Part shown: one piece after another, positions 8,719 to 62,414 of the stretch
Position numbering within the stretch: position 1 is the stretch's first letter
How the letters are laid out: each line of letters begins with the position of its first letter
Virus record (IMG/VR): IMGVR_UViG_3300007513_000013
Location: 54,472 to 118,471 of that record
Length of the DNA stretch: 64,000 nucleotides
Strand: one strand, 5' to 3'
DNA from: a virus
The notes under the pieces: model-generated
Told to the model about the DNA's origin: nothing
Databases searched by the model: none
The model's input: only the letters and a program-made list of their open reading frames with translations
Translations under genes and position numbers: made by a program

Positions 8719-10863
8719 TTGTTTATTAAAAAGCTACTTTCCTTAATACTTTGTTTCTTTATAATTTTATTTTTTATCGTTTCATGTACAGATGAACAAG
8801 GAGGGGGCAGTGGGAAAAATGATGAAGATTTATATGCGTACCCCGAAATTTCTACAAAAGATACTTCTGAAGATTCTGAGGATGTATCTGAATCTGAAGA
8901 CGCGACTGAAGAAGTAGAAGAAGATACCTACTCTGTTTGGACCGATCCTTGTGTTGACTGCGCTTGGTATTTTTGTGGCAACCTAGATGTCATATGGCAA
9001 AAACAAATTTGTATCAATAACTGTGATGATCCCCCTACAATTGTTTTTGAAGGTGAGTGCGAAGAGCACTTAGAATGCAATCCCGCACAACTAATTTTAG
9101 AAGCAAACATTCCATGCACAACAGAAGATGGATATCCAGGCACAAAAGACAAGCTTTGCAACAAAGGGCAAATACAATATACAGACTGTAAATCAAGCTG
9201 CTCAGAGGAGATCTGTGACCTTTTAGACAACGATTGTGATGGTGACATCGATGAAGGCGTAAAGAACGCTTGTGGAGAGTGTGGGGACGTCCCAGAGGAG
9301 GTTTGTGACTTCATAGATAATGATTGTGATGGCGTAATTGACAATGGTGTCGCAAATGCGTGTGGTGGATGTGGAAAAGAACCAGAAGAGATATGTAATG
9401 GAATAGACGATAATTGTGATGGTGAAATTGATGAAGGTCAATTAAATGCGTGTGGAAAATGTGGACCAGTTGATGATGAAATTTGTGATGGTATTGATAA
9501 TGATTGCAACGGATTGATTGATGAAGATTTGATAGGAAAGTGTTCTACAGACTGTGAAGAAAATTTAAAATATTGTGTAGGTGGTCAGTGGATATGTACA
9601 GCAAAACAACCGCAACCGGAAGTATGTAATGGATTAGATGATGATTGTGACGGAAAAGCAGATGAAGGCTTAGATTGCTTGTGCACAATACAAGACATTG
9701 GTGTTTTATTTCCATGCCAAGAGGGTCCTTTGGTTTGCGGTGCGGGATATAAGACGTGTGAATGTGTTGATCCCAGCGATCCAACATGTGCCGAACTGCA
9801 GTTAACAGAGTGTTTAGCTGTATGTCATTGGCTTCCACAAACTACTGCACCCGGGACAATTTGCGATAAATATTTAGGTGAAGTAAAGCCAGAAGAATGT
9901 AATAATCATGATGACAACTGTAATCAACAAGTGGATGAAAACTTATTTGCAGGTTGTTATAGTGGGCCGCCAAAAACAATGTATGTTGGAATATGTATAC
10001 CAGGCGAAATGACGTGTTCTGCGGGCAGTTGGGGCAATTATGATGATAACAATCAATTCATTAAAAAACTGTGCTTAGGAGAGGTTACGCCGGAGCCAGA
10101 GGACATATGCAATGGTACAGATACAAATTGCGACGGTAAAATTGATGAAGACAAAGAATTAGAGCCTACAGACATATTGTTTATTGTTGATTTGTCTGGA
10201 TCTATGGTTGAAGAGATTAATGCGGTCATGACTGCTCTTAATAAGTTTGCAGCACACTACAGTGATTCCGATGTAGTAAAATGGGGCTTAGTTTTTACAG
10301 CGGCGCAAGATCCAACATGGAGCGAGCGCGTTGTTTTGCAAACAGACCTAGTTGATTTTCAAACCTTTGTTAACACATTCCAAAACTCTGGCTTTAGTCT
10401 AACCGGAGGGAACGAACAAAATTATGATGCAATTTACCTAGCTATTCATAATTTGGTTGCAGACGCCGATCTTCCTTATAAAATCTCTGATTTACAATGG
10501 GGCTGGGGATCTGTCGAATCAGTACCTCCCAAGGACCAATGGAACATTAGTTGGCGTGATGATGCAAAGCATGTCATAATTTTATTTTCCGACGAAGAAG
10601 GTCAATCTTATTTGACACCGGCACTCACTGAGGCAGATATGGTTAATATGATTAATGCTGCTGATGAGTTGGCTGTATATACTTTCACTTCTCCGATGGT
10701 AATGAGCAGTGGGTGGGGGAATTCTTACGTACCGCTGGCTCAGGCAGGCGTTGGTGGAAAAGTTTATGAATTAACGATGAAGGCCATTGAAATGTATAAC
10801 AGTCTTTTAGAAATTCTAGATGAGACTGCATGTGGAAATAGCGTAAAAAATAATAATCCTTGA
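8719..10863 (+). CDS. Lipoprotein with seven Cys/Asp-rich 'putative metal-binding' (MopE-like) repeats and a C-terminal vWA domain
   Basis: Signal peptide with lipobox IVS-C; repeats E[IV]C[DN]xxD[ND][DN]C[DN]GxxDE; vWA MIDAS DILFIVDLSGSM, GGNEQNYDAI, IILFSDEE. Confidence 0.85.
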   Translation: MFIKKLLSLILCFFIILFFIVSCTDEQGGGSGKNDEDLYAYPEISTKDTSEDSEDVSESEDATEEVEEDTYSVWTDPCVDCAWYFCGNLDVIWQKQICINNCDDPPTIVFEGECEEHLECNPAQLILEANIPCTTEDGYPGTKDKLCNKGQIQYTDCKSSCSEEICDLLDNDCDGDIDEGVKNACGECGDVPEEVCDFIDNDCDGVIDNGVANACGGCGKEPEEICNGIDDNCDGEIDEGQLNACGKCGPVDDEICDGIDNDCNGLIDEDLIGKCSTDCEENLKYCVGGQWICTAKQPQPEVCNGLDDDCDGKADEGLDCLCTIQDIGVLFPCQEGPLVCGAGYKTCECVDPSDPTCAELQLTECLAVCHWLPQTTAPGTICDKYLGEVKPEECNNHDDNCNQQVDENLFAGCYSGPPKTMYVGICIPGEMTCSAGSWGNYDDNNQFIKKLCLGEVTPEPEDICNGTDTNCDGKIDEDKELEPTDILFIVDLSGSMVEEINAVMTALNKFAAHYSDSDVVKWGLVFTAAQDPTWSERVVLQTDLVDFQTFVNTFQNSGFSLTGGNEQNYDAIYLAIHNLVADADLPYKISDLQWGWGSVESVPPKDQWNISWRDDAKHVIILFSDEEGQSYLTPALTEADMVNMINAADELAVYTFTSPMVMSSGWGNSYVPLAQAGVGGKVYELTMKAIEMYNSLLEILDETACGNSVKNNNP

Positions 10864-11634: not shown

Positions 11635-13506
11635 ATGTCGTCCAAAAATGTATATACTCTTTTCAAAACATTGCGTGAGTACCTTAGTGAAGAAACGGTA
11701 CAACTAGATATATCCTTACCAGAAGAAGAAAATGTCGGAGAAATTGAAGCCAAAGAAGCTCGATGGGTCGATAACTTATCTGATAGTGACCCGGGCGTAT
11801 TCAATTTAAAGCTAGTAAAATCACAATTCAAGTCTCCCAAAAAAGATATGCTACAGGAACAGGGTTTACATGGATTTGACTTGCCATGGGCGTGGAAAGA
11901 TAAAATATTAGCACTGGCTCCGCCTGCAGAACCTGTGGATTCAGTTCCGGGCGGCGTGATTCTTCCCGGACCTCAAAAAGCCAAAGAAAATCCACTCAAA
12001 GGCACAGATTTGGAGCACATCCAGCCAGAAGTGACACACCCAAAAGAACTGGCTGGTCAATATATAATAGAGCCTTTCGAAATCACTGCTCGTTCTAAAG
12101 AAGAGCAAGATAAAGCATATAAAGACTCACTTAAACAAGTTTTTTTACCGCCGTCCGGACTGAAAGATTCTTCTGAGACGGGATATACAGCCGGGCGTAA
12201 ATGGAGGCAATATGGAGAGTCGCGAATGGCGCGAATGTTGACTGATGTTGCACAAGAGTGGAAAAATAATCAAGAAGATTTAGTCGACGAAAAGGGAAGG
12301 TGGGGCCCCATTGAATATTGGGATGTGTCCAAAAAGGGAGGGGGCGAGTTTCCACCGCATGTCAGCCACCAATCAGGGAGAGATGTTGATATCGCAACGT
12401 TTCTCAAATCAAAGGCCCGCGGCTCTGCTAATATGGCCACCATTAGTACCGTTGATATGTATAGGATGTATAGGTTGGCTGAAATGTATATTAATTGGTC
12501 AGCGGATAATCCGGAGCCGCACTGGATTGACAAAGAAACAGGACTAGCTAAAAATCCGATGGTGATATTCTGGAATCAAGAATTAATTGATGCAACAAGA
12601 AAATGGGCAGAAAAAAAACACAAAGTGAATGGTGAGTGGGTATACAAAAACAATGTCAGCGAAATGACCAATGATGCAATGTTTGGCACGTGCACAAAAC
12701 GGAATTCTCGGGAGGAGTGCGTAAAGCGCAAAAAAACATCTGATGTTAACAGGGGGCCGCGGACGTTTCGTCATGAACCTGGACATGCAAACCATTATCA
12801 TATACGTACAGACCGAAGTTATGGAAAAAGAAACAAAATAAGATATGCAAACAAAGGTGAAAAACCATCTGTTTATATGCCTCCGCCTGAGCCGGAAGGG
12901 TTTGATCCAAAGGTGCGCATGAAAACTGCAGAGGATGAAGCAAGAGAATGGAAATGGAACGACAAGACACAACAGTGGGAAAATATGTTTGAGGGCGGCG
13001 CGGAGCAGGTTTATAACGTAGGCGGCGGAGGGCGGCCAGATCAAACAGTCCCAGTACCAGTGCCGACGCAAAAACTGTCGACGGTGCCCCCCAGTAATAA
13101 AATTAAAAAAGCGGCAAAAAAGAAGAGGCGGCACCGGGGCGTTTTTAAAAAGGCACCTAGTGGGCCCGAGACTATGAAAAACCTTATTAAGAGTGGGATA
13201 TATGGGCCATTGGATGAGCAGATGGGGGCGCCCATGGATCCTATTCAGCAACAAATTCAAATGTCCGTAATGGCAGCACAAGAACAACTCGGTCCTTTGT
13301 TTGGTCAGTTGCAAGGAATGATTGTGCAAATGCGCACTTTAAACACCCCAGCAGCCAATCAAGAGGTAAAAAAGCAAACTAATAGAATTGAACTAATTAC
13401 TAATGACTTAAACGACGGAGATATTGATGTCATGGCCGCAATTGGTCAATTGGGTAACATTGCAAACGACATGGGCAAGAAAATGCAAAAGTTAACACAA
13501 GGGTAG
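11635..13506 (+). CDS. Putative virion protein with penicillin-insensitive murein endopeptidase (MepA/M74, LAS family) domain
   Basis: YG...M-A-R-M-L, DVSKKGGGEFPPHVSHQSGRDVDI (H at 12358) and GHANHYHIR (HxH at 12793-12801). Confidence 0.8.
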   Translation: MSSKNVYTLFKTLREYLSEETVQLDISLPEEENVGEIEAKEARWVDNLSDSDPGVFNLKLVKSQFKSPKKDMLQEQGLHGFDLPWAWKDKILALAPPAEPVDSVPGGVILPGPQKAKENPLKGTDLEHIQPEVTHPKELAGQYIIEPFEITARSKEEQDKAYKDSLKQVFLPPSGLKDSSETGYTAGRKWRQYGESRMARMLTDVAQEWKNNQEDLVDEKGRWGPIEYWDVSKKGGGEFPPHVSHQSGRDVDIATFLKSKARGSANMATISTVDMYRMYRLAEMYINWSADNPEPHWIDKETGLAKNPMVIFWNQELIDATRKWAEKKHKVNGEWVYKNNVSEMTNDAMFGTCTKRNSREECVKRKKTSDVNRGPRTFRHEPGHANHYHIRTDRSYGKRNKIRYANKGEKPSVYMPPPEPEGFDPKVRMKTAEDEAREWKWNDKTQQWENMFEGGAEQVYNVGGGGRPDQTVPVPVPTQKLSTVPPSNKIKKAAKKKRRHRGVFKKAPSGPETMKNLIKSGIYGPLDEQMGAPMDPIQQQIQMSVMAAQEQLGPLFGQLQGMIVQMRTLNTPAANQEVKKQTNRIELITNDLNDGDIDVMAAIGQLGNIANDMGKKMQKLTQG

Positions 13507-16500: not shown

Positions 16501-16731
16501 TTATTTGGCGATGATGAACCTGCCGGCTTAAGACCTCCTCGCTCTCCAGCTCTTATGGACAGGAAAACCAGAATGACGGATGAGGAAGAGGTACGCAAAG
16601 AAGATGAGTATGTATACGAAAACAAGGCCCAGGCACTCTTTAAAAAACCCTACAATGAACTAGGCGAAGACGATAAACAAAAAGTTCGCGATGCTGTCGA
16701 GCTAGACGAACTTGAGTGGGTTAACGAATAA
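13510..16731 (+). CDS. 1073-aa modular putative virion protein with N-terminal zincin-like (HELIH) domain
   Basis: GSYDP...DILRSISHELIHHMQ (H at 13753)...MEEEAY; remainder is low-complexity and Pro-rich with no recognisable family. Confidence 0.75.
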   Translation: MLDIFNESEHPLEGLEELIQDLFSFSNERFGFQRPPSLFLRSDSENAKNALGRTGSYDPSKMEIMIFVDKRHPKDILRSISHELIHHMQNLRGDFEHEFDTSEGYAQNDPHLRNMEEEAYSAGNLCFRDWEDSRKQQLAESICYNNIIGGDDMSEDKRIPLKEWKNAELNSQLMKKFGLVNEESGAGAEQLYHEETTAENVSGEETLEEDEEPESTNFSTTLNERKELVVEKRAEYYRAPGENYRFDRDEANKGKGGVYSQNIAQVYDRCVAEEDQDCIDDLEMSGDIYQWADRQGRAAKKAKQYCIWGHCFPLSSKKKPKGKPKKKPKGTYQEGIASYLPVHPDKLKTLLNEGWLEDWWRSSTGQSGQSIQVGPGQKQYQKVLNQGAWVDVPKGTYELPDYVTPADVAPYMYHKGGNPAAEAAEHAKRRLNPSYGAVDFHAPLKAGPSDVEMIRRHQNPRQNMAYANQQIAKLPGGKQRMTTLTPTEEFAIDMGLSALDIYGGFGALKWARAMKAAKAAEEAARVSRIVKSGEKVAPKFGVPPELPPPRKPAELPHTVIDPDDVYYILDDADIISSTKSKPVQPPPVPKPVRPPPVPVEKAAMSLDDLPVVTAAMRGEEAAQLSKWQRIKDWTKDLPVKIKEASGKAWEATKTGARKTGEYLDPRTTKFPTTFNQLLGPGKQKFFSNRTALNLFATAAGTGASAEALYYWFGGDGPFIEHEEGKNYPSNAILQKDPKSGEVVSYYLTREQFMGEPRSFFDRTPDPTKFVKVWTTNGREANDLVEGLYAEQHRKEFFAKVGNSEASMKDYTELREKQLAGFKQLYDDGRVNKAVLDAKLRQIMAEYKLVTKTKEKSKVDWQLTTPEQKELVRTYLRSLMLEDYVREFGPGAVPGIGEIYTFTDYKGQRVKIESSEDDGDSYGIKIIGVEDPDGDGPLTKKDAEEKIKRNWVLGHIGGREDQWSQGMHFPIAQTGKPKHPILYTPQSEREWRKGYFANLFGDDEPAGLRPPRSPALMDRKTRMTDEEEVRKEDEYVYENKAQALFKKPYNELGEDDKQKVRDAVELDELEWVNE

Positions 16732-19700
16732 TGGGTGGTGCTGCAGGACACATGGCACATCCTTTTGATTTGCCCGAAGTAAATACTGGAAATGATTTAA
16801 TCAATTTCTTTCAAACAGCGGTAGATCATTTACAAACAAATGCCGGTAGTGTTAAAATTGATGGAGTTAACGTAAGCTTTAAATTAATTGACGGACCTCA
16901 AGGCAAAGAATTTGCAGTTGATCGTGGAAGTACAAAACCAATTGACATTGAAGGGATAACAATAAGCAGAGTTAACGAAAGATTTCCAGAAGGTCATGGA
17001 ATGCGGCCAGCTATTACAACTCTATTGACAATCCTCAATGAGGCTCTCCCAAATATAAAACGACAATTGCAGCAATTGGGAATGTGGTATGACCCCACGA
17101 AATTCTTAAACACAGAATATGTCTTAGGACAAACAAACGTAACTGTATATGATAAAAACTTTTTAGCTATTCACGGCTTAAATCAGTTTTATGAGAAAAC
17201 CAATCAAAGAACCGGCGTTTCTAGACCGGGAACTAAAAGACCCTTAAACAATAAAGCTCCGAGTACAGAAGTAGAATATAGCGACGATCTAATGGAGTCT
17301 TTAGTTGCAGAAATTGGTAAAGTAGCTGGTAGGTATGGATTTGAAGTTTATGGATCCGTGCCAACAGAATCCATGAAGCCTGTTAATTTTTCTAGTACCT
17401 TAAGTACCCCTTTTACTGTTAATTATGGATATGAAGAAAATGGTGAGGTGTTCTCAGACACAAAAACCCTTCAAGAATGGTTGGCAGAGGCCAATAATCC
17501 CCGAGGGGCAACTGTCAATTTAGCCGATGGTAGAAAACAAGGGGCCATGAGCAAATTAGTCTACACAGAAATTTTAAATGGCACTTTAATAACTGAATTG
17601 TTGCAAATTGGTGAAGATTTTTGGCAGAACATGCAGGACGGGGGAAATATAGAAGGAACGGAAGTAGAATTAGCTGTAGATGGCGCAATATTCTACCATG
17701 CAACCAGATTGTTGGGAAATGATGTTTTAGAGACACTCACAAGCCCCATGGGAGACGTTCTAAGCCACGAAGGAGTGGTTATTAGGGGGTTATCCTCTGT
17801 GCCGGTTAAAATCACCGGAGAATTCATCGTACAAGGCCTACAAACGGCCTTTAGAGAGCAGAAAGAACTTTATGAGCAGAATATACCGTTTGCAGGCGAA
17901 AAGTCCCATATAGCCTTCATTCCGGGCGGATTTAAGCCTCCGCACAAAGGGCATCTAGAAATGGTTAAATATTACTACAATAAAGTGGGCCCAAATGGGA
18001 CAGTTGTTGTTTTAATGGGCGGTGGTGGAAAACAGCCGAGAACAATCAATGGAAAACCCATAACTTTGCAAGATTCTATGAATATATGGGAAACATATTT
18101 AAGAAATGATCCTGGAATTGATTGGCCCTCTGATAGAGTGGAGTTTCAGAGTGTTGAAGGTGTTGGTCCAATTGCGCCTATTATAGATTATATAAAAGAG
18201 AAAGCAGATCCAGAAACTGAAGTTATTCATTTGGGCGCTGGTGCGAAAGATGCTAATAGATGGAAAATGATGCTGGATAATTCCAAAAACAACCCGAGAG
18301 GAGTTGAATTACATATTGATCCTGCTCCAAATATGGTAGATTCAGAAGGAAATCCATTGAGCGCAACTGTTATGCGAAGATCTGTTGAAGAAAAAGATCT
18401 AGACACCTTTAAGAGATTTATTCCCGACACCAGCCTTCATACAGCTGAAGATTTGTTTGTTATGCTGAGCGGTGCTTTATTAACAGAAGGAAAGGAGGAT
18501 GACCCACTTCCTGTGGGTATTTTTCTGCGGTTAATTGAAGAAGAGGTAGATAAAGAAATATTAAATGAAAATTTATGGGACACTTTAGATAATTGGAGGC
18601 GCAGATACGGCCGTAAAATCCTTAATCCAATCGAAACAACGGCAGGAGTGTTGGGCGATCTTATCGGTAAACAAGAGGCCGGAAAAAAAGCAGAACACCT
18701 TACAGATAAATTAGCAGACACTATTACATCTCCATTTGATCCTTTAATTAATCCAGTGGTTGATTATCTATCTGGTCGGAGAGACATTGATCCGCCAAAA
18801 GGGCCGGGCGGAAGTACACCAGTTATAGTACCTCCATATGACCCTAGGACAGAAAAAATAAATCAACTTTTAAAACAAAGAGAAGACTGGAGTAAAAAAC
18901 TGCATTTAAAATATTTACAAGACAGAGAAGAAGCTTATTATCGAAATCCGGAAAGATGGGAAGGGAAATTACCCGAAGAAGGATATTGGGGACCTCATGA
19001 GAATAGCCCGACAAGTAAAACGACTTACGATGCGTGGTTAAAATCTGGCGCGTACAGAAAACATTTTCCAAACTTAACACGAATTAGCACTGATGACCCA
19101 AGATTAAAATGGTATTGGAAAGATATGGATCCCTCCAAATTAGAACAAGTATATGGTACTCGCGATGGACGTTGGCACGACCCACTAAAAGAGTCAAACA
19201 CACTTTCACCAGATATGTTTCTAGAATTAATTGAAGAAGCTATAGCCAGCACAGATTTATTTGGTGGCAGGAAAGACGATGCCAATATGTATCCTCAATG
19301 GAATGCTCAAGCTGCTGATGATGCAATATATGATAATGACGATACAATACCGGTAACTGAAGCTAGTGGAATGGCAGCCGGTGATGTTTCTGGTGGCGGT
19401 GTAGGAAATAGGCCTCCGGGAGCTTGTGATGATGAATACTTAATTCGTGAAGAAGACAGTGAAACACCTGAAGTTAAAAAACCTGCTGAAGTTAAAAAAC
19501 CTGCTGAAGTTAAAAAACCTGCTGAAGTTAAAAAACCTGCTGAAGTTAAAAAACCTGCTGAAGTGGCTAGCTGGCAGGATGACCCGAGCTATGAATCATC
19601 TCTCCCTCCTCAAAACAAGCAAGAAGAAACCCACGAAGACAAAATAAAGGGTATGAAGTTTTATAATAACTTAAAAGACGATACATTTAAAGAGGCTTTT

Positions 19701-20690
19701 AACAAGGCCTATAAAACATATGGCTGGAAAGGGGCTTATGTCTGGAAGAAGACATATGAAAACTTCATTAAGAAGGGAGACGGTCCGGATGATGCAGCAT
19801 ACTTTGCCAGCGATGCAGTTACTTCTTTGAAGTGGCCCGGGAAACAAAAAATCACCAAGCAGAGGGCGCGCCCGTACCACCCGCTAGAGCCCGGCTCATA
19901 CACAAAGATTTATACCGGTAAAAACCGGCCATCAGATGAAGAGATAAAAAGAGATCCAGTGAAGCCGCCGCCAAAAGGTTCACAAAAATACTCCTATACA
20001 GATCAGGGCAAACAAATAGCTAATAATGTAAGAAACGACCTGATCAAAGCATATACACAGCCATGGTCCCCGTTTGCGCAGCAAGGAATCAGAAAACATG
20101 GAAAGAAAAAGTATTTTAACGAGATCCTTCCGAAAATTACAGAAAAACTACGTGGCATCAGCTTTAATATTGAAAAAGGTAAAAAGACCGTTAGTGATCA
20201 TGCCGCGGCATATTACGCGCCCGGGACGAATAGTGTCACTCTCCCCGGACGCTTTGATGCAAGCACAGAAGAACTTGAAACACTGCTGGTACATGAAATA
20301 GGGCACTCTTTGGCGCCAGGATTTCTTACTAAACTTGGCCTAGGTGTTATTGATCCGGGTGATAACAAGCAAGATTTATTAGCGTTGATAGACAAGGAAA
20401 AAGTGCACAAAGGGTTCAGGCCCGGGCAGAAGTCGATTATGCACCGGGTTGAGTATGGCAAAGATCCGCATGGTGCGAATCCCTCGGAGATACAAACCAA
20501 CTTAGCTCATTTAAAATATTACCTTATGAAAAAGGGCCACATGGGCAATGATGGGAAAGTAACCGGAAAAGTTATTGACAAAATTCGCCAAGGAAAAATA
20601 AAAGTACCCGGTAATAATTTTGTAAAGAATATAAATTCCAAAATGGATTCGCGCGAACTAGCTCAGCGTATGAATAATATTTGGAATTAA
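16731..20690 (+). CDS. 1319-aa multidomain protein: RNA-ligase-like nucleotidyltransferase, HxGH cytidylyltransferase-like domain, and C-terminal zincin (HEIGH)
   Basis: KIDG (16854), TEYV, FLAIH, EGVVIR (17769) and VKIT match ligase motifs I/III/IIIa/IV/V; FIPGGFKPPHKGH (H at 17943) ...LSATVMR; LLVHEIGH at 20292. Confidence 0.75.
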   Translation: MGGAAGHMAHPFDLPEVNTGNDLINFFQTAVDHLQTNAGSVKIDGVNVSFKLIDGPQGKEFAVDRGSTKPIDIEGITISRVNERFPEGHGMRPAITTLLTILNEALPNIKRQLQQLGMWYDPTKFLNTEYVLGQTNVTVYDKNFLAIHGLNQFYEKTNQRTGVSRPGTKRPLNNKAPSTEVEYSDDLMESLVAEIGKVAGRYGFEVYGSVPTESMKPVNFSSTLSTPFTVNYGYEENGEVFSDTKTLQEWLAEANNPRGATVNLADGRKQGAMSKLVYTEILNGTLITELLQIGEDFWQNMQDGGNIEGTEVELAVDGAIFYHATRLLGNDVLETLTSPMGDVLSHEGVVIRGLSSVPVKITGEFIVQGLQTAFREQKELYEQNIPFAGEKSHIAFIPGGFKPPHKGHLEMVKYYYNKVGPNGTVVVLMGGGGKQPRTINGKPITLQDSMNIWETYLRNDPGIDWPSDRVEFQSVEGVGPIAPIIDYIKEKADPETEVIHLGAGAKDANRWKMMLDNSKNNPRGVELHIDPAPNMVDSEGNPLSATVMRRSVEEKDLDTFKRFIPDTSLHTAEDLFVMLSGALLTEGKEDDPLPVGIFLRLIEEEVDKEILNENLWDTLDNWRRRYGRKILNPIETTAGVLGDLIGKQEAGKKAEHLTDKLADTITSPFDPLINPVVDYLSGRRDIDPPKGPGGSTPVIVPPYDPRTEKINQLLKQREDWSKKLHLKYLQDREEAYYRNPERWEGKLPEEGYWGPHENSPTSKTTYDAWLKSGAYRKHFPNLTRISTDDPRLKWYWKDMDPSKLEQVYGTRDGRWHDPLKESNTLSPDMFLELIEEAIASTDLFGGRKDDANMYPQWNAQAADDAIYDNDDTIPVTEASGMAAGDVSGGGVGNRPPGACDDEYLIREEDSETPEVKKPAEVKKPAEVKKPAEVKKPAEVKKPAEVASWQDDPSYESSLPPQNKQEETHEDKIKGMKFYNNLKDDTFKEAFNKAYKTYGWKGAYVWKKTYENFIKKGDGPDDAAYFASDAVTSLKWPGKQKITKQRARPYHPLEPGSYTKIYTGKNRPSDEEIKRDPVKPPPKGSQKYSYTDQGKQIANNVRNDLIKAYTQPWSPFAQQGIRKHGKKKYFNEILPKITEKLRGISFNIEKGKKTVSDHAAAYYAPGTNSVTLPGRFDASTEELETLLVHEIGHSLAPGFLTKLGLGVIDPGDNKQDLLALIDKEKVHKGFRPGQKSIMHRVEYGKDPHGANPSEIQTNLAHLKYYLMKKGHMGNDGKVTGKVIDKIRQGKIKVPGNNFVKNINSKMDSRELAQRMNNIWN
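19468..19564 (+). repeat. In-frame 18-bp perfect tandem repeat CTGAAGTTAAAAAACCTG, 5 copies plus a partial sixth (encodes PAEVKK repeats)
   Basis: Units start at 19468, 19486, 19504, 19522, 19540; partial at 19558. Confidence 0.95.
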
Positions 20691-21916: not shown

Positions 21917-22347
21917 GGGGGCGAAATGGTTTCGACAGAGTAATGAGATTGTTTTGTGCAAGACTGTGTAAGTATCACAGTATAAATACTTAAACTTTAT
22001 AAATGCCAACGACAACGTTGAATTTGAATACGCACTAGCTGCGTAATCTGAAGTTACTAACGCTTTATTAACGAAGTTAGATCGGGAATACATACGATAT
22101 CGTGTATTAGTTTTCAAGGGTTCAAATAACCTAGCTCAGCTGTGGCTTAACAAGTCTTAAAAGGTCAGAAGGGCGAAAGGGTTATATAGTTACTATATAA
22201 TTTTGGTAACCAGCACCATAAGTTGGTAAAATGGATTCCCCGATGTTTCATCGGGTGGTTGGTACTTAGGTGGTTATTGTACCTATTCTTGTGAATGACA
22301 AAATAATTAATTTATTTTGGACCCGGGTTCGACTCCCGGCGCCTCCA
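21917..22347 (+). ncRNA. ssrA: tmRNA (transfer-messenger RNA), tag ANDNVEFEYALAA at 22005-22046
   Basis: 5' GGGGGCG pairs with 3' CGCCTCC-A including the G3:U wobble; GGTTTCGAC near the 5' end; T-arm CCGGGTTCGACTCCCGG; tag ORF after ATAAAT ending ALAA-stop; CCA not encoded. Confidence 0.95.
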
Positions 22348-22376
22348 CTCATATAGTAAGTTTACATCAGAGATAA

Positions 22377-22404: not shown

Positions 22405-23496
22405 ATGAATGAAAACGAAAATGAGAACGAAGGTGGTTGGGACTTACCAGAAGCTCCCCCAGATGATTTTGATTTTGATTTTGTAGAAGCCTATGATGAT
22501 GAGCCTTCTGTAGGTGAAAAAATGCTAGCTGAAAATACAGCACCTAGCGCAATTAATTGTGCTTTTGTTGGTATTGGCGGTGGCGGTGGTAAAATAGCCA
22601 AAGCCTTTTTGGACTTAGGTTTTAATAAGACATTCCTTGTTAACACTACTGAAAAAGATCAGCCAATTGGACTAGAACCAGAAAATTTTCTTTTATTGCC
22701 TGGTGCAGATGGTGTTGGAAAAGATGTTAAGCTTGGAAAACAAATACTGCAAGATAACAGCGCTATGGTAGAAGATGCCCTCAGAACCAGATTCGGCAAA
22801 GTAGATTGGATTTTTGTTTGTGCTGGTGCTGGTGGAGGCACTGGAAGTGCTAGTTACATTTTACACAAAGCAATGACTCGATATTTATCTTCTATAGAAG
22901 CTTCAGGAAAGGTGGTTTATATAGCTAGCAAACCAACCGCGCAAGAGTTGTTAAATCCTACAATTAAATCTAATTGCGCAATGTTCTTGAAAGATATCAG
23001 CAAGCACACTCATATTATTATTGACAATGAAAAGCAATTGCAATTGCTGAGAGGTAAGGTGGGCATGTTGAATATGTATCCAGCGGCTAATAAGAACTTT
23101 GCAAAACTATTGGCACAGGTTCTTAAACTAGCTCATGAGCCTTCACCAATTCAAGTTTTTGATTCTAAAGATCTAGAAAGATGTTTACAAACAAACGGCC
23201 GTATACTTTTAGGAAGTACTGTTGTAAGAGATCCTTCCAAAACAGATTTAGGGGCAACTGTATTTCAGGGCTGTTTAAAATCTTCCCCGTGTCCTCCACC
23301 AGCTAGCAAATCTAAGACTGGTGCACTATTGTTGGTAACCACTCCAGAAATGGCAGATGATCCTTCTATAAGTAATCGATTAGAGGCAGCCTTTTCATAT
23401 GTTGGTGGTCGTTCTGAGACATTATTTTCTGGTGTTTATGTGAGAGAAAGACTACCAGGATTAATTGCCTTAACTTTATTGGGCGGAATGAGTTAA
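22405..23496 (+). CDS. Tubulin/FtsZ-family GTPase (PhuZ/TubZ-like)
   Basis: VGIGGGGGK (T1), VNT, GADGVGKD, GAGGGTGS signature, IIIDNE, YPAAN, and FDSKDL (T7-like). Confidence 0.9.
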   Translation: MNENENENEGGWDLPEAPPDDFDFDFVEAYDDEPSVGEKMLAENTAPSAINCAFVGIGGGGGKIAKAFLDLGFNKTFLVNTTEKDQPIGLEPENFLLLPGADGVGKDVKLGKQILQDNSAMVEDALRTRFGKVDWIFVCAGAGGGTGSASYILHKAMTRYLSSIEASGKVVYIASKPTAQELLNPTIKSNCAMFLKDISKHTHIIIDNEKQLQLLRGKVGMLNMYPAANKNFAKLLAQVLKLAHEPSPIQVFDSKDLERCLQTNGRILLGSTVVRDPSKTDLGATVFQGCLKSSPCPPPASKSKTGALLLVTTPEMADDPSISNRLEAAFSYVGGRSETLFSGVYVRERLPGLIALTLLGGMS

Positions 23497-30342: not shown

Positions 30343-31611
30343 GTGAGCGATAAAAAGATCACCATTTTGACATTGAGCGATCATCCGCTTTCTCCTTCTG
30401 GAGTTGGCACTCAAACGAGAAACATGATTGAGGCAATGCTTGAGACTGGTAAATATAAATTTATAAGCCTAGGCGGGGCGATGAAACACGTCGATTATGA
30501 ACCTAAAAAGGTAGATCCATGGGGAGAAGATTGGGTTATTTTTCCAATCGACGGGTATGGAAATCAAGAAACAATTCGTTCCCTAATCAGAGTTAATAAA
30601 ATAGATATTCTTTGGTTTATGACAGATCCCAGATTTTATGGCTGGCTCTGGTTAATTGAAAATGAAATTAGGCCGCTGATTCCAATGGTCTATTATCACG
30701 TGTGGGACAATTACCCTTATCCAACTTACAATAAACCATTTTATGACTCAAATGACGTTATCGCGACAATATCTAAAGTAACTGACGATATTGTTAAGAC
30801 TGTATCACCAGATGTTGAATCTGTTTATATTCCACACGCAGTGGATGCTAATATTTTTAAAAAACATGATGGTCCCGAAATGGAAAAGTTCAAAACAGAG
30901 GTGTTTAAGGACAACTCTCTAGAGGGTAAATTTATATTCCTGTACAATGGCCGAAATGCAAGAAGAAAACAGACTGGCTCTATGATCTTTTGGTTTAAAG
31001 AGTTTTTAGACAGAGTGGGTCACGACAAAGCTGTTTTTATTATGCATACAGATGTTAAAGACCCGGTTGGCCAAGATCTGGAATATATCATAAGACACTT
31101 AAAATTAACAAATGGAGAAGTTGTATTTTCAACACAGAAATATCCACCGAATGTTTTAGCTAAAATCTATAATATTGCAGATTGTACTCTTTGTTTGTCT
31201 GATGCCGAAGGTTTTGGATTGACCTCTTTGGAGTCTTTAGCATGCGGAACTCCTGTTATTTCAACGTTGACAGGCGGTTTGCAGGAACAAGTAACAGACG
31301 GCAAAGACACTTTTGGAGTGGGAATTGAGCCTAGTACAAAATCTATTATCGGCTCTCAGGATATTCCATGGATTTATGAGGATAGGGTATCGGAAGAAGA
31401 TGTTATAAATGCAATGTTAAAGTTGTACAATATGTCGCAAGAAGAAAGAGACGAACTTGGGGCAAAAGGTACAGCACATGTATTAAAAAATTACAGCTTT
31501 GAAAGGTACGTTGAACAGTGGGATGAATTATTCCAGCGCGTTCATAGTGAAATGGGCTCGTGGGAAAATAGAAAAAATTACAAGTCATGGACTTTAAAAG
31601 AGGTAGTATGA
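30343..31611 (+). CDS. Glycosyltransferase, GT-B fold (GT4-like)
   Basis: SGVGTQ, IPHAVD, NGRNARRKQ, and SDAEGFGLTSLESLACGTP. Confidence 0.88.
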   Translation: MSDKKITILTLSDHPLSPSGVGTQTRNMIEAMLETGKYKFISLGGAMKHVDYEPKKVDPWGEDWVIFPIDGYGNQETIRSLIRVNKIDILWFMTDPRFYGWLWLIENEIRPLIPMVYYHVWDNYPYPTYNKPFYDSNDVIATISKVTDDIVKTVSPDVESVYIPHAVDANIFKKHDGPEMEKFKTEVFKDNSLEGKFIFLYNGRNARRKQTGSMIFWFKEFLDRVGHDKAVFIMHTDVKDPVGQDLEYIIRHLKLTNGEVVFSTQKYPPNVLAKIYNIADCTLCLSDAEGFGLTSLESLACGTPVISTLTGGLQEQVTDGKDTFGVGIEPSTKSIIGSQDIPWIYEDRVSEEDVINAMLKLYNMSQEERDELGAKGTAHVLKNYSFERYVEQWDELFQRVHSEMGSWENRKNYKSWTLKEVV

Positions 31612-32873
31612 GAAAAAAAGTTTTAGTTAGAGCACCAGCATTGAGCAGAACAGGATATGGTGAGCATGCTCGTTTTGTTTTACGTTCCTTAAGAAAGCAT
31701 GAAGATAAGTTTGACATTTTTTTAGACAACACCAACTGGGGCCAATCCGGCTGGATTTTTCGAGACAATGAAGAAAGACGATGGATAGATACAATTATTG
31801 CAAAAACAATGTTTCACGTGAATAATGATGGCGGCCCAATGGATGTATCTGTACAAGTTACAATACCAAACGAATGGCAACCTTTGGCCCCGGTAAATAT
31901 TGGCGTAACTGCTGGTATTGAAACAACACAGGTCGCACCGCAGTGGGTTGAGCAGTCTTTTGTTGTAGATAAGATTATTACCACTTCCAATCATTCTAAA
32001 CAAGTTTATGAAAACACAACATATGAAGCACAACACAAAGAAACGATGGCGGTTATCAAAGAATTTAGATGTGAGCGGCCAATTGAAGTTGTCCATTATC
32101 CCGTAAAAGATATTGAAAAAGCAGAAATTGATTGTGAACTTGAAACAGACTTTAATTTTTTAGTAGTTGCTCAGTGGGGCCCTAGAAAGAATATTGAAAA
32201 CACAGTTAGGTGGTTTATAGAAGAATTTGTCGACAATTCTAATGTTGGAATGGTGTTAAAGTTGTTTTATAGAAATGGATCTATTATAGATCGGGTCAAT
32301 TTAGAAGAAAATGTAAAAAATCTACTTAACGAATATCCGCAAAGAAAATGCAAAATTTATTTATTACATGGAGATATGAGTGAAGAAGAAATGACCGGCC
32401 TTTATACTCATCCAAAAATTAAGACATTAGTATCTTTGACGCATGGTGAAGGATATGGTCTTCCTTTGTTTGAGGCGGCTTATAACGCACTACCAGTCTT
32501 AGCTCCAGATTGGAGTGGGCATGTCGACTTTTTGTTTAAACCAACAAAAGATAAAAAAGGCAAAATAAAGCAAAAAGCACATTTTGCAAAAGTGGATTAT
32601 GATATCGGCCCGGTTTCCCAAGAAGTATTGTGGCCCGGAGTTCTAGAAAATTATATGATGTGGTGTTACCCAAAGCAGGGTAGTTATAAGATGAAATTAC
32701 GTGAAATCCACAAGGATCACGGCAGGTTCAAATCCCAGGCAAAAAAGCTGCAAAAATGGATTCGAAAGGAATTTTCTGAAGACAAACAATATGAAAAAAT
32801 GGCTAATGCCATTTTGTCTGTTATAGAGAAGGGCGAAACTGCAGAGGAAAAAGCCGTCGTTAGTTATGAATAA
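31608..32873 (+). CDS. Glycosyltransferase, GT-B fold (GT4-like)
   Basis: TGYGEH, QWGPRKN, and THGEGYGLPLFEAAY; ATG at 31608. Confidence 0.88.
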   Translation: MRKKVLVRAPALSRTGYGEHARFVLRSLRKHEDKFDIFLDNTNWGQSGWIFRDNEERRWIDTIIAKTMFHVNNDGGPMDVSVQVTIPNEWQPLAPVNIGVTAGIETTQVAPQWVEQSFVVDKIITTSNHSKQVYENTTYEAQHKETMAVIKEFRCERPIEVVHYPVKDIEKAEIDCELETDFNFLVVAQWGPRKNIENTVRWFIEEFVDNSNVGMVLKLFYRNGSIIDRVNLEENVKNLLNEYPQRKCKIYLLHGDMSEEEMTGLYTHPKIKTLVSLTHGEGYGLPLFEAAYNALPVLAPDWSGHVDFLFKPTKDKKGKIKQKAHFAKVDYDIGPVSQEVLWPGVLENYMMWCYPKQGSYKMKLREIHKDHGRFKSQAKKLQKWIRKEFSEDKQYEKMANAILSVIEKGETAEEKAVVSYE

Positions 32874-34470
32874 GATTCTATACATCTCAGATTTTTTTTT
32901 GGACACAATACAAGGCGGCGGAGAACTAGTAGACGATTGTTTAATAAATAATTTAATTGAGCGAGGCTATGATGTTCAAAGAGTGCATTGTGGAAATGCC
33001 ACTCCGGAGTTTATAGATAATAATTCTGCCGCATTTTTTATTGTATCTAATTTTGTCACTCTGTCAGAAGAGTCAAAAGAGTCTTTGGGCGCGCAGTCAT
33101 ATGTGATTTACGAACACGATCACAAATACATAATCGAAAGAAACCCTTCTGCATACAAAAATTTTGAAGTACCATCACATAGATTGGCTAATCTTTCCTT
33201 TTATCGAAACGCAAAAGCCGTCTTTTCTCAATCTAAATTACATTCTGAAGTTATAGGAAAAAATGTAAAGGGAGCAAATGTAATCAATTTAGGCTGCACT
33301 TTGTGGAGCGACGAACATTTGCGCGCCCTAGAAAATAACCTAGATACGCAAAAAGATGATAAGTTTGCTATTGTAAATTCAGAAAACCCTGTTAAAGGTA
33401 GGGATCCTGCAATTGCATATTGCAGAAATAAAAACGTTTCTTTTGATTTAATAGGCTCGAACGATTATAAAGAATTTATCGCACAGTTGGCCGCCAAAAA
33501 AGGCTTAGTTTTCTTTTCACAGGTCTTAGAGAGCTTTTGCCGACTAGTTGTTGAGGCCCGAGTATTGGACTGCACAATTACAACCAATAACTTAAATGGA
33601 TGTGCTTCTGAAGAGTGGTTTAAGAATTATAAAGGCAAGGAATTATTAAATTTTTTAAAGGAAAAGAAAAAGGAAGTCATCGATACAATTATTTCAGTAA
33701 TAAAAGGCGATCACCGTTCTAATAAAAAAGGCGACATCACAGTTATATTGAACTCTTATCGACGTCCATATAATTTAAACATGCAAGTTGAGGCAATAAA
33801 AAACCAAACCATACTTCCAAAAGAAACTTGGCTTTGGGTCAATTCCCATGAAGACAATAAGGGTTGGGACTATTCAAATCTTGGAATAGACAAAGTATTC
33901 AACAATGATCATAATTGGAAATTTTATGGCAGATTTGCTGCAGCCCTTCTGGCAGATACAGAATATGTTGCAGTGTTTGACGATGATACAATTCCGGGAA
34001 AAGAGTGGTTTGAAAACTGTTTAAAGACAATGGAAACCCACGAAGGAATATTAGGAAGCGCCGGTGTAATATTGAATGGCAAACATTACGTTCAGCATAA
34101 TAGGTGCGGCTGGCCCTCTCAAAATAAAGAGGCAACAGAAGTTGATTTAGTTGGTCATGCGTGGTTTTTTAAGCGCGATTGGCTTCAATATTTATGGAAA
34201 GAAAAACCAACAACATGGGACAATGGCGAGGATATACAATTTTCCTATTTAGCTCAGAAATATGGTGATATAAAAACCTACTGTCCACCTCACCCCTTAG
34301 AAAAGCCCGAATTACATGGTTCGATTTTAGGAAATGAGCTAGGCATAGACAATAAAGCAACTTCTACTGATTCTAGTATATCACACGAACGATTTTTTGC
34401 CGAAAGAGACGTCTGTGTACAAACAGCAATAAAAAATGGCTGGAAAACTGTTAATGGAGTTTCGCTGTGA
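32866..34470 (+). CDS. Fused glycosyltransferase (GT-B-like N-half plus GT2/GT-A C-half)
   Basis: GGGELVD and ESFCRLVVEAR in the N-half; ITVILNSYRRP and AVFDDDTIPG in the C-half. Confidence 0.75.
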   Translation: MNKILYISDFFLDTIQGGGELVDDCLINNLIERGYDVQRVHCGNATPEFIDNNSAAFFIVSNFVTLSEESKESLGAQSYVIYEHDHKYIIERNPSAYKNFEVPSHRLANLSFYRNAKAVFSQSKLHSEVIGKNVKGANVINLGCTLWSDEHLRALENNLDTQKDDKFAIVNSENPVKGRDPAIAYCRNKNVSFDLIGSNDYKEFIAQLAAKKGLVFFSQVLESFCRLVVEARVLDCTITTNNLNGCASEEWFKNYKGKELLNFLKEKKKEVIDTIISVIKGDHRSNKKGDITVILNSYRRPYNLNMQVEAIKNQTILPKETWLWVNSHEDNKGWDYSNLGIDKVFNNDHNWKFYGRFAAALLADTEYVAVFDDDTIPGKEWFENCLKTMETHEGILGSAGVILNGKHYVQHNRCGWPSQNKEATEVDLVGHAWFFKRDWLQYLWKEKPTTWDNGEDIQFSYLAQKYGDIKTYCPPHPLEKPELHGSILGNELGIDNKATSTDSSISHERFFAERDVCVQTAIKNGWKTVNGVSL

Positions 34471-35471
34471 TATTAATAAGTTTCGGAACCAGGCCGGAAT
34501 ATATTAAGCTTAAGCCGATTGTTGATATTTTTAAAAAAAAGAAACAACCCTACAAAATTTTATTCACTGGGCAACACACTAGTTTACTACCCGCAGAAGC
34601 TTCAGTTGAAATAGATTATAAGTTAAACATTAAAGATGGTTCAAATCGACTTGATTCAATCGTTGGCTCTGTCATGAATCAGTCCCATATATGGATTGAA
34701 CAGCTTACGCACGTAATGGTACAAGGAGACACGACTTCTGCTTTTGCGGTAGCATTGGCCGCTTTTCATAGAAAAGTCCCTGTAATACACCTTGAAGCCG
34801 GTCTCAGGACCTATGACAATAATAATCCATACCCAGAAGAATTCAACAGGCAGGCAATTTCTCGTTTGACCAGCATACACCTTTGCCCAACGGAAAATGA
34901 TGCAAATAATTTAAAAAGAGAAAACGCGCAAGGTGAAATACATGTTGTGGGAAATACTGTGTTGGACAATCTACAAAATTTGAAAGTTTCTTATAATAAT
35001 AAAATTTTAATAACAATGCACCGCAGAGAAAATCATGATAAAATAGAAGATTGGTTTTTGGCCTTTAACAACCTTGCGAAATCTTATTTAGAGTATGATT
35101 TTGAGTTTGTTGCTCATCCAAATCCAAACGTACAAAAGCATTTGCACCTATTGGACCATGTTAAGGTGGTGGATCCTATGGAGCATACTGACTTTGTTCG
35201 AGAAGTTGCACAATGCAAGTTTTTAATAACCGACTCTGGTGGGCTACAAGAAGAATCTTCTTTTTTGAGAAAAAGGAGCATTGTTTGCCGAAAAGCCACG
35301 GAAAGAACAGCTGGACTGGGGCATTTTTCAATTTTATGTTATAATCCAAACGAGTTATATGATATGATACCTAGGTACATAAATAATTTTAAAATCAGTA
35401 GTGCGATTAAGTGTCCTTATGGCGATGGCAATTCTGCTGAAAAGATATATAACATTCTAAAATCAAAATGA
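34467..35471 (+). CDS. wecB: UDP-N-acetylglucosamine 2-epimerase (non-hydrolysing)
   Basis: FGTRPEYIK, TGQH, VQGDTTSA, HLEAGLRT, PYPEEFNR, TMHRREN, TDSGGLQEE, PYGDG. Confidence 0.92.
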   Translation: MILISFGTRPEYIKLKPIVDIFKKKKQPYKILFTGQHTSLLPAEASVEIDYKLNIKDGSNRLDSIVGSVMNQSHIWIEQLTHVMVQGDTTSAFAVALAAFHRKVPVIHLEAGLRTYDNNNPYPEEFNRQAISRLTSIHLCPTENDANNLKRENAQGEIHVVGNTVLDNLQNLKVSYNNKILITMHRRENHDKIEDWFLAFNNLAKSYLEYDFEFVAHPNPNVQKHLHLLDHVKVVDPMEHTDFVREVAQCKFLITDSGGLQEESSFLRKRSIVCRKATERTAGLGHFSILCYNPNELYDMIPRYINNFKISSAIKCPYGDGNSAEKIYNILKSK

Positions 35472-36250
35472 CAGACAAATTTGTAAACGACCTATTTTTA
35501 CTTTTAAACAAGCTAAAGAACAATGAACACTTTGCTTTTGTGCGCTTTTCTGACGGAGAAGTCTTTGTTATGCAAAACAAATATTTGAGACTGGGAGAAA
35601 AACAGGTAAACGTTGGTGATTTTGTACATAACTTTGGATATTCAGCAGATGACTTTAAAGAATACATACCTGAGAAACACAGCTTTCTCAAAGACAAATT
35701 AATAGACTCTATCTCGTTTGAAAAAAAGAATTATTTTGTTGGGGCAGGTTGCGCAAATTGTACGTGCGCCATTAGAGAACACATCCCATGGATAAAAGAG
35801 TATTATAAAAACGGCGAAGAGCATTGGACTAGTCCAAACTTGCTTGTTAATTCAAATTATCCGATGTTTGTTGGGCATTATGTGCCTGAATTCAAGAAAC
35901 ATAAGGTTGTTATGATCTGCAGCAAAAATGCTGATCTTACAAGTATGCCTTTTGAAGTAGTGAAAGACTTTAGAGTTGGGAAAAACTGTATAGTCAACGA
36001 TCATCATTTAGAAGATGAGATTAAAGAGTGGATGGAATCTAACTCAATAGAAGATCATGTCTTTTTGTTCTCAGCCAGTAGTTTAAGCGAGGTTTTGATA
36101 CATAAGCTTTTTGATTGGAACGATAAGAACACATATATTGATATTGGAACAACTCTCCACAAATATATGAAATTAGGAATAGAAAGAGATTACCTAAAAG
36201 CCTATTGGAATAATGCTCCTTTGGCGGACATACACAGATCATGCAATTGA
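35468..36250 (+). CDS. GT-D fold (DUF1792-like) glycosyltransferase candidate
   Basis: FAFVRFSDGE and YIDIG motifs, in glycan-cluster context. Confidence 0.55.
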   Translation: MTDKFVNDLFLLLNKLKNNEHFAFVRFSDGEVFVMQNKYLRLGEKQVNVGDFVHNFGYSADDFKEYIPEKHSFLKDKLIDSISFEKKNYFVGAGCANCTCAIREHIPWIKEYYKNGEEHWTSPNLLVNSNYPMFVGHYVPEFKKHKVVMICSKNADLTSMPFEVVKDFRVGKNCIVNDHHLEDEIKEWMESNSIEDHVFLFSASSLSEVLIHKLFDWNDKNTYIDIGTTLHKYMKLGIERDYLKAYWNNAPLADIHRSCN

Positions 36251-36627
36251 AACTAGTTGAAAATGAACCTAAATACTGGGAATTTATAAGAAATTTAAGA
36301 AATGATTCTGAAGTAAAAAAAGGATTTATACAGCAACAATATATAACGACTGATAATCATAAAAGTTTTATGGAGAATCATAATAAAAATTTTTATATTT
36401 GCCTGGTAGAAGAAAAACCGGCAGGATATGTTGGTCAAATAGATAACGACATAAGAGTTGCAACCTCTCCAGAATTTCAAGGAAAAGGTGTTGGAAAGTT
36501 TATGATTAATACGTTGATGGAAAAGCATCCAAATGCTTTTGCAAAAGTTAAAGTGGAAAACGAAGCGAGTCTGAGGCTTTTTGAAAGTTGCGGATTTAAG
36601 AAACAATATTATATTTTGGAGAAATAA
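36241..36627 (+). CDS. GNAT N-acetyltransferase (PseH-like)
   Basis: IRNLRND, PEFQGKGVG, and NEASLRLFESCGF. Confidence 0.85.
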   Translation: MQLKLVENEPKYWEFIRNLRNDSEVKKGFIQQQYITTDNHKSFMENHNKNFYICLVEEKPAGYVGQIDNDIRVATSPEFQGKGVGKFMINTLMEKHPNAFAKVKVENEASLRLFESCGFKKQYYILEK

Positions 36628-39739: not shown

Positions 39740-39753
39740 AGGGGATATGAAAA

Positions 39754-40587: not shown

Positions 40588-40591
40588 TTTA

Positions 40592-58148: not shown

Positions 58149-58175
58149 AATATAATAAATTAATTCACACCTACA

Positions 58176-58182
58176 CTATTTA
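58176..58182 (+). promoter_or_regulatory. CTATTTA, candidate phage late-promoter motif
   Basis: Intergenic, 25 nt before the gp25-like ATG at 58208. Confidence 0.5.
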
Positions 58183-58207
58183 GATATGAAGCGGAGAACA
58201 TTAATAA

Positions 58208-58603: not shown

Positions 58604-58629
58604 TTTAAACTTATAAGGGTTTATAATTA

Positions 58630-62408: not shown

Positions 62409-62414
62409 AACAGG

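Follow-up and report, generated by a model that had tools for sequence, protein, structure and literature searches.

A ligase-like domain paired with a HIGH-superfamily nucleotidyltransferase in a candidate head-packaged cargo protein of marine phages

What might a phage do with a protein that opens with a ligase-like domain, follows it with a second nucleotidyltransferase and then runs on for another 700 residues? The question is raised by P0001, a protein of 1319 amino acids (aa) encoded by a real open reading frame (ORF) at 16731..20690 (+) of a 64,000-nucleotide stretch of viral DNA, which we call the window. The window covers positions 54,472 to 118,471 of IMG/VR virus record IMGVR_UViG_3300007513_000013, which is 118,471 bp long and estimated to be 65% complete. 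An initial annotation, made from the sequence alone, singled out 16731-18480, which is only the first 583 residues of P0001. It proposed an RNA-ligase-like adenylyltransferase fused to an HxGH transferase and read the two as an injected counter-defence kit. We compared the protein with its relatives, with predicted and solved structures and with known phage systems. P0001 is laid out as a two-enzyme N-terminal module followed by a 700-aa C-terminal region, and our best explanation, held with moderate confidence, is that it is a modular cargo protein of a ~180-kb marine myovirus.

The two N-terminal domains

All of the motifs that had been read in P0001 (KIDG, TEYV, FLAIH, EGVVIR, VKIT, HxGH and LSATVMR) are present, and their key positions are invariant or nearly invariant in 44 homologues. 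Within the ligase-like domain, the 44-sequence alignment leaves G6, H7, M8, H10, P11, F12, K42, D44, G45, N47, S49, D64, R65, H148, E347, G348, K360, T362 and G363 unchanged, and E129 and R352 are conserved at 90% or more. The K, D and G of motif I are also invariant in alignments of 14 and 34 sequences, the 34 being a more diverse set that includes Microcystis phage Mel-JY01.

AlphaFold2 modeled residues 1-370 with a predicted local distance difference test score (pLDDT) of 91.9 and a predicted template modeling score (pTM) of 0.88. When this model was compared all-against-representatives with VIA-align, the top 21 rows were all RNA ligases, DNA ligases or capping enzymes, with Z from 8.0 to 5.5. 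The best match was T4 Rnl1 (Z 8.0, root-mean-square deviation 3.9, 178 residues), and others were the Pmar ligase (7.4), fungal Trl1 (7.1), REL1 (6.9), Rnl2 (6.8), the Chlorella virus capping enzyme (5.9) and T7 ligase (5.5). Ligase and capping families also led a Foldseek search of the PDB, with weak E-values of 8e-3 and up. Against viral models (BFVD), Foldseek listed close uncultured relatives first, followed by distant proteins of cyanophages and jumbo phages and, after these, by viral proteins annotated as RNA or DNA ligases.

A middling Z alone would not carry the assignment to the covalent nucleotidyltransferases; it draws its strength from fold and motif order taken together with invariance at exactly the catalytic positions. 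The model and the alignments show that residues 1-370 share a predicted fold, and conserved catalytic positions in the motifs, with the covalent (lysine-nucleotidylating) nucleotidyltransferases; the closest of these are RNA ligases of the Rnl1/Trl1 type. T4 Rnl1 (9do4/5tt6), the Trl1 ligase domain (9qw7/9r3w), REL1, Rnl2 and NgrRnl share the nucleotidyltransferase fold with it. The motif order I, III, IIIa, IV, V is also common to both, with conserved Lys, Glu, Glu-Gly and Lys, as is the lack of an OB domain.

Several observations count against an enzyme of this class. The structural scores are middling, reaching at most 8.0, and motif V has a single Lys rather than two. Searches with Pfam, PHROGs, NCBIfam, PADLOC, PDB sequences (phmmer and profile) and hhalign gave no sequence link between the N-terminal domain and known ligases. 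Its profile, aligned by hhalign with single T4 Rnl1, Rnl2 and DNA ligase sequences and with an Rnl1-family profile, was not significant (probability ≤2%). The sole sensible register, against the Rnl1-family profile, placed NTEYV on the motif III Glu at low probability. P0001 has no Pfam match to the T4 Rnl1/RnlA family (PF09511 + PF20819) and no C-terminal tRNA-binding domain, whereas PF09511 was present in all Rnl1 relatives gathered for comparison. Unlike the RNA ligases, the domain has ~190 additional residues inserted between motifs IIIa and IV, and it stops directly behind motif V. In contrast to Rnl1 and Trl1, it lacks their C-terminal domain and is always partnered with a HIGH enzyme. 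The conserved N-terminal GHMxHPFD of the family was not seen in the T4 Rnl1 or Rnl2 sequences compared. One further lead, to Pfam DUF6267, was not confirmed in the genome itself, in Mel-JY01 or in 78 relatives.

Could the ligase-like domain be a non-catalytic scaffold or binding module for assembly or packaging, comparable to cap binding by snurportin or tail-fibre attachment by T4 Rnl1? Snurportin is indeed among its VIA-align matches (Z 4.6), the domain has neither an OB nor a C-terminal substrate domain, its motif V is incomplete, and it is the constant element beside variable cargo. However, invariance of K42, D44, G45, E347, G348 and K360 and near-invariance of E129 and R352 in the 44 relatives is hard to explain without catalysis, and the motif I residues stay fixed even in the more diverse set of 34. 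We consider a scaffold very improbable.

The second domain, residues 393-590, was modeled with a pLDDT of 85.9, so that each of the two domains was confidently predicted and matched its expected fold. G399, P403, H408 and R549 are invariant in its alignment, and H405 and S544 are conserved at 90% or more. Foldseek matched the model to archaeal NMNAT, PPAT and NadD at E ~1e-6. Searched against PDB sequences, the family profile found 1f9a (NMNAT, E 1.6e-6), 8aih (NadD, E 1e-5, over the full length and with the SxTxxR motif aligned) and 3nd5 (PPAT, E 2.5e-5). The PHROG family phrog_3041, 'cytidyltransferase', also matches the domain (4e-6). P0001 alone scored 13 bits against a Pfam cut-off of 21 (CTP_transf_like clan), and 12/44 relatives matched at E ≤0.001. 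The Rossmann fold, HxGH and SxTxxR are as in archaeal NMNAT (1f9a, 1m8g), NadD (8aih) and PPAT (3nd5, 5h7x), with the Arg of the archaeal NMNAT GRFQP motif replaced by Gly. We conclude that residues 393-590 are securely a member of the HIGH superfamily with intact HxGH and SxTxxR motifs, nearest to NMNAT, NadD and PPAT. Every NCBIfam equivalog for NMNAT, NadD or PPAT falls far under its cut-off: the best reached 19.2 bits against 127 (NF002243), all others scored lower, and the cut-offs span 103-449 bits. Both domain calls of the initial annotation were thus right at the level of fold and superfamily.

Fusion and adjacency of the two domains in relatives

Searches of 5.8 billion and 1.84 billion proteins recovered a large family, most of it from marine metagenomes. 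Its two length classes comprise 597 and 1137 clusters at 90% identity, and the ligase-like family amounts to 690 representatives at 50% identity. The ligase-like family is widespread in ocean phages and is present in cultured cyanophages.

The two domains occur in five arrangements. P0001 and minimal forms of ~640 aa place the ligase-like domain before the HIGH domain, with or without long variable C-termini. The reverse order is found in Mel-JY01 (WWT39297, with BLASTP matches at 2e-7 and 0.005), in two huge uncultured phages and in many metagenomic proteins. Other relatives separate a leading HIGH domain from the ligase-like domain by inserts, namely DUF192, DUF5661, Tad3, SET, GNAT, DUF6934 and Ros/MucR. 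The two can also be encoded as adjacent separate genes. Finally, the ligase-like domain is found fused to Amidase_2, GDSL/DUF459, SET or DUF192 in proteins where a HIGH domain is not recognisable. That the two are fused in either order, and stay neighbours where they are separate genes, is classical evidence of a shared function. On the strength of these protein architectures, we regard the ligase-like and HIGH enzymes as shown to be an evolutionarily coupled pair.

Cyanophage S-PM2 encodes a distant homologue of the same domain order, a 591-aa 'cytidyltransferase-like' protein. The two-domain profile detected it by hhalign (95.6%, E 1e-8) in a match spanning motifs IV and V and the HIGH domain, and its N-terminal part holds an H-L-E-H-L-E-D segment and a KWDG motif. 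A profile of the ligase domain only (A6) gave no detection in S-PM2, S-CREM2 or P-HM2. UniProt lists the S-PM2 protein at 591 aa; in NC_006820 (L016) it appears as two overlapping ORFs, 258-836 and 727-2037, a split that is likely a frameshift or a strain or sequence difference. The 'possible cytitidyltransferase' of P-HM2 (438 aa) was rejected as a homologue: it has no ligase motifs, and the HIGH gene of P-HM2 encodes a separate small protein.

Among the phage proteins named 'cytidyltransferase' (S-PM2 591 aa, WWT39297, phrog_3041 and S-CREM2 ORF154), S-PM2 shares the domain order of P0001, Mel-JY01 has it reversed and S-CREM2 ORF154 is HIGH only. Their identity to P0001 is low (~26% or less) or detectable only by profile. 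The ligase-like domain is covered by no domain database, and the existing annotation names the other half of the protein only. A second enzyme, its coupling to the first and the head-loading and cutting signals of T4 type described below turn that vague annotation into a testable hypothesis.

Head-loading and cleavage signals

How would such a pair reach its site of action? Where the conserved GGxxGHM segment does not stand at the start of a protein, it is directly preceded by (L/I/V)-x-E. In the sequences fetched first, which gave 34 distinct contexts, position -1 was E in 32/34 and position -3 was L or I in 34/34. A second set comprised 150 representatives at ≤50% identity. Of its 108 motif-bearing members, 31 begin directly at M-GG, another 41 carry a leader 3-40 residues long and the remaining 36 contain the domain internally. 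Where upstream residues existed, -1 was E in 72/77 and -3 was L, I or V in 77/77. The junction ahead of the ligase-like domain in Mel-JY01 reads I-A-E and then GG.

The T4 head protease gp21 cleaves after L/I-x-E, and a protein needs no more than the first ten IPIII residues to be loaded into the T4 head (PMC9026906). The authors of that work suggest that an IPIII-type signal lets T4-like phages package diverse proteins (PMC9026906). Many of the short leaders in our set (MNTFEEYFLLE, MITFKQYLLNE) resemble the T4 IPII/IPIII propeptide MKTYQEFIAE and the start of IPI, MKTFKEF, which we took from the T4 genome itself. Relatives of P0001 carry near-copies of the IPII/IPIII decapeptide together with the (L/I)-x-E cut site. 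In one split form (L019), the ligase-like gene and the next gene, which encodes the HIGH enzyme, each open with a T4-like leader; the latter starts MKTFQQFFIE and continues into a GRFHPFHIGH motif. A sister contig has the same gene pair, with the HIGH gene confirmed by Pfam. In long polyproteins, the junction motif F-S/T-K-x-W-W ... L-L-T-E recurs ahead of successive modules.

Virion proteomics adds to this. S-CREM2 ORF154 is a HIGH enzyme of 286 aa that opens with the leader MKNFSSFLTE and contains a PPHKGH motif; it is among 52 proteins detected by mass spectrometry in purified virions (PMC10665884). According to the same authors, 'cytidyltransferases' are often detected in cyanophage virion proteomes (PMC10665884).

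P0001 itself starts M-GGAAGHM, and removal of the Met would give the same GG start. At least six ORFs of its own genome start with MK(L/I)TK..L..II.EEL...L.E (class A leader), and several others start with a leader of the (L)FE(N/S)WR.(F/Y)L.E type (class B). Right after its HIGH domain, P0001 holds one look-alike of each class in tandem, and these enclose the putative (L/I)-x-E-type sites ILNE613 and PIE635, again as post hoc patterns. The leader patterns were counted 8 times in the genome against 0.18 in shuffles, and 11 times against 2.1, counts that are supportive only, as the patterns were defined after examples had been seen.

The leaders form two families, each of near-identical N-terminal sequences, on unrelated ORFs at genome coordinates 558, 28572, 42866, 44167, 44715 and 49825, and also at 6334, 26365, 51999, 54041, 54564 and 55179 (genome coordinate 54472 is the window start). 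Some of these ORFs repeat the pattern internally, as in ORF 42866 at aa 157 and ORF 49825 at aa 154.

We favor, with somewhat better than even confidence, the view that the P0001 family is a head-packaged, protease-released pair of AMP (adenosine monophosphate)-transferring enzymes that is active from the start of infection. Members would be packed into the prohead, and a head protease of the T4 gp21 type would trim them. Long forms like P0001 would be cut at internal leader-like borders, after ~aa 613, to free the two-enzyme module, and the enzymes would enter the host together with the DNA. By analogy, the family would resemble T4 Alt, a packaged enzyme, in being carried in the head. It would differ from the T4 internal proteins in that its cargo is a two-enzyme module or a long polyprotein with internal sites, its packaging is deduced from such signals, and the window copy has no N-terminal leader.

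Against packaging stand the missing leader of P0001, the confinement of the mass-spectrometry evidence to the related HIGH-only ORF154, and the caution of the S-CREM2 authors about contamination and carry-over in virion proteomes (PMC10665884). The match between ORF154 and P0001 is itself confined to the HxGH stretch (16 residues by BLASTP, 50% identical, E 0.001). Models of the gp21-like protease (PF03420) and of gp23 found no match in the 118-kb record, which at 65% completeness is without a recognisable head module. In addition, one split form (L008) lies among genes for ThyX, dUTPase, helicase and DNA Pol III, a setting of replication and nucleotide metabolism.

The missing leader, the L008 setting and the lack of a head-protease match in the record would fit an unpackaged, cytoplasmic auxiliary enzyme that works during infection, for example by sealing DNA or RNA and making NAD+ (nicotinamide adenine dinucleotide) or another cofactor, with (L/I)-x-E a linker feature or a signal limited to some lineages. 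Most close relatives lack the leader as P0001 does, and with no T4-type DNA ligase in 118 kb, replication could need a ligase function. However, the residues at -1 and -3 are kept in N-terminal and internal contexts alike, both genes of the split form bear independent T4-like leaders, and P0001 has internal look-alikes of motifs that also occur on large neighbouring ORFs. We judge a cytoplasmic enzyme unlikely, though it is the strongest competitor to packaging. The support for injected cargo is real but indirect. It comes from the leaders, (L/I)-x-E junctions, virion-detected ORF154 and Tad3 fusions of relatives, and the window's own copy contributes internal look-alikes only; to this extent relatives support the injected kit proposed at the outset, and P0001 itself lacks the leader.

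Polyvalent proteins offer another comparison. In these, a single polypeptide, believed to be delivered along with the DNA, combines many unrelated enzymatic or anti-defence domains (Iyer et al. 2017, PMC5512222). The P0001 family differs in that neither MuF nor any other hallmark domain of polyvalent proteins was detected and its modules are separated by protease and leader motifs of T4 type.

A few observations accompany these signals. The leaderless minimal forms of ~640 aa (P0149, P0171) share a conserved C-terminal tail in which L-x-E is followed by a stretch rich in Ser and Gly, then by a run rich in Lys and finally by an amphipathic helix (VDEVMRLIMERG-like); by analogy with Alt, this tail may be a targeting propeptide. 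In P0315, a truncated GGAAGH stub follows L-L-T-E at ~aa 421, ahead of an unrelated module. No other genes with T4-like leaders were found within 10 kb on either side of P0241. An (L/I/V)-x-E in the linker between the two domains is present in 130/139 relatives; it is expected by chance in acidic linkers, and we did not use it as evidence. The upstream ORF ends V-N-E, which could have marked an ancestral cut site or a fusion by frameshift. We rejected this idea, as in relatives the ORF upstream ends otherwise and a -1 shift gives no clean junction.

Possible functions and genomic setting

What might the enzymes do once inside the host? Lys42 might take AMP from adenosine triphosphate (ATP), or from NAD+, and pass it to a 5'-phosphate nucleic-acid end, which would then be sealed or capped. 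The HIGH domain might use ATP and a phosphorylated small molecule to make an AMP-pyrophosphoryl product, such as an NAD-type dinucleotide. Both activities could conceivably serve early host take-over or counter-defence. We have low confidence in each of these three steps. The counter-defence theme is suggested because Tad3, an anti-Thoeris protein, is fused in relatives: it occurs in three representatives and scores 82.5 bits in P0315, where DUF5661 and Tad3 occupy aa 221-408 inside a HIGH...ligase-like polyprotein. Tad3 binds ThsB and blocks Thoeris signalling (PMC13728456).

The initial annotation went further and proposed an injected tRNA-repair ligase joined to an adenylyltransferase for nicotinamide mononucleotide (NMN) or nicotinic acid mononucleotide (NaMN), the latter working with NadE at 40592 to rebuild NAD+ after NADase-type defences. 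The top structural matches of the ligase-like domain do include the tRNA-repair ligases T4 Rnl1 and fungal Trl1, NMNAT and NaMNAT lead the HIGH matches, and the Tad3 fusions fit an NAD-defence theme. The ORF at 40592-41365 does belong to the NAD_synthase family (NadE, 186.9 bits). NadE is not conserved as a partner: it is absent from the complete genomes of Mel-JY01, S-PM2 and S-CREM2, and here sits within a glycan/sugar-biosynthesis cluster. NadV, the partner expected for salvage as NadE would be for the NaMN route, and Tpt1 were found neither in the record, at its 65% completeness, nor in Mel-JY01, whose genome is complete, and T4-type Pnkp (an end-healing enzyme), Rnl1, Rnl2 and DNA ligase were not found in the 118-kb record. 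The HIGH domain stands at 19 bits against the curated cut-offs. These results lend no support to tRNA resealing or NAD+ rebuilding, and we consider such a kit improbable.

A broader version of the packaged-pair reading is that T4-like marine phages and cyanophages inject a previously unrecognised, pre-made two-enzyme system that would act before phage gene expression. It might restore an adenylylated cofactor or signal, such as an NAD-type dinucleotide, or turn it to another use, or else cap or seal nucleic-acid ends, against immediate host defences, by chemistry unlike known RNA-repair and NAD-reconstitution pathways. A review of phage NAD and RNA-repair systems does not include the ligase-like/HIGH pair (PMC9503650). 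We regard this version as unlikely. If the packaged pair is real, many marine myoviruses would deliver a ready-made pair of nucleotidyl-transferring enzymes, sometimes beside anti-defence domains such as Tad3. The family would then offer natural capsid-cargo architectures and leaders, useful for phage biology and for protein packaging in the style of T4.

The features of P0001 are collected in Table 1. Its C-terminal 700 aa matched nothing in Pfam, PHROGs, NCBIfam, PADLOC or PDB sequences apart from a DUF1388 hit below cut-off. The HEIGH motif in this region is a possible zincin site.

Table 1. Coordinates of features of P0001 in the window
Feature	Position	Strand	Basis or remark
Whole ORF	16731..20690	+	1319 aa, P0001
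Conserved N-terminal segment GGAAGHMAHPFD, aa 2-13	16734..16769	+	G6, H7, M8, H10, P11, F12 invariant
Ligase-like covalent nucleotidyltransferase domain (predicted), aa 1-370	16731..17840	+	AlphaFold2, VIA-align, Foldseek PDB and BFVD
Motif I KIDG, aa 42-45; Lys42 predicted nucleotidyl acceptor	16854..16865	+	K42, D44, G45 invariant
Motif III NTEYV (aa 127-131, E129) and motif IIIa FLAIHG (aa 144-149, H148)	17109..17177	+	alignment
Motif IV HEGVVIR (aa 346-352) and motif V PVKITGEF (aa 358-365)	17766..17825	+	E347, G348, K360 invariant
Disordered acidic linker with L-Y-E (aa 380-382)	17841..17906	+	pLDDT <50 at aa 373-390
HIGH-superfamily (Rossmann) nucleotidyltransferase domain, aa 393-590	17907..18500	+	motifs, AlphaFold2, Foldseek, profile
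FIPGGFKPPHKGH segment with HxGH, aa 396-408	17916-17954	+	HxGH is H405-H408, nucleotides 17943-17954
SxTxxR, LSATVMR aa 543-549 (S544-R549)	18360-18377	+	conserved in alignment
Module border, two tandem leader look-alikes: class A LIEEEVDKEILNE aa 601-613, class B LDNWRRRY...PIE aa 616-635	18531..18635	+	regular-expression counts
Second leader-like helix, aa 829-840	19215..19250	+	weak
Tandem PAEVKK repeats, aa 913-945	19467..19565	+	Pfam DUF1388, 21.5 bits, below cut-off
HEIGH (HExxH) motif in C-terminal region	20292..20306	+	read from sequence only

The large genes of the window all lie on the + strand, and guanine-cytosine content is ~38%. A gene for a PhoH-PIN protein is among the features near P0001. 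On contigs of 87-184 kb from relatives, the local order of genes is preserved: MopE-repeat protein, large ORF, P0001 homologue, acidic ORF, Trypsin_2, PhoH, PD-(D/E)XK and glycosyltransferases. The nearby transfer-messenger RNA (tmRNA) noted in the initial annotation was confirmed at 21917-22350 (+) as a full-length gene of ~434 nucleotides (Rfam RF00023, 105.6 bits, E 3e-40). ARAGORN missed it, listing neither tRNA nor tmRNA genes for the window. Just downstream, a 363-aa ORF at 22405-23496 (+) has a tubulin/FtsZ GTPase-domain match slightly below the Pfam cut-off (32.1 vs 33 bits).

The glycan and nucleotide-sugar cluster that holds the NAD_synthase-family gene spans 30343-44431 (+). It also encodes GT4, GT2 and GT11 glycosyltransferases, a UDP-GlcNAc 2-epimerase, a DegT aminotransferase, a carbamoyltransferase, a methyltransferase, a UDP-glucose dehydrogenase and two epimerase/dehydratases. 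Upstream of P0001, 1724-16731 (+) is a series of huge ORFs (644, 1662, 714, 623 and 1073 aa) with almost no family matches beyond MopE metal-binding repeats (8719-10863) and a weak Peptidase_M74 (11635-13506). The 1073-aa ORF has a HELIHH (HExxH) motif close to its N-terminus, and several of these large ORFs bear leader-like helices. At the other end of the window, 49209-64000 (+) holds a 2979-aa ORF, then a 131-aa ORF with a gp25-baseplate-like start, then ORFs of 605, 653 and 528+ aa, and is probably a tail/baseplate module.

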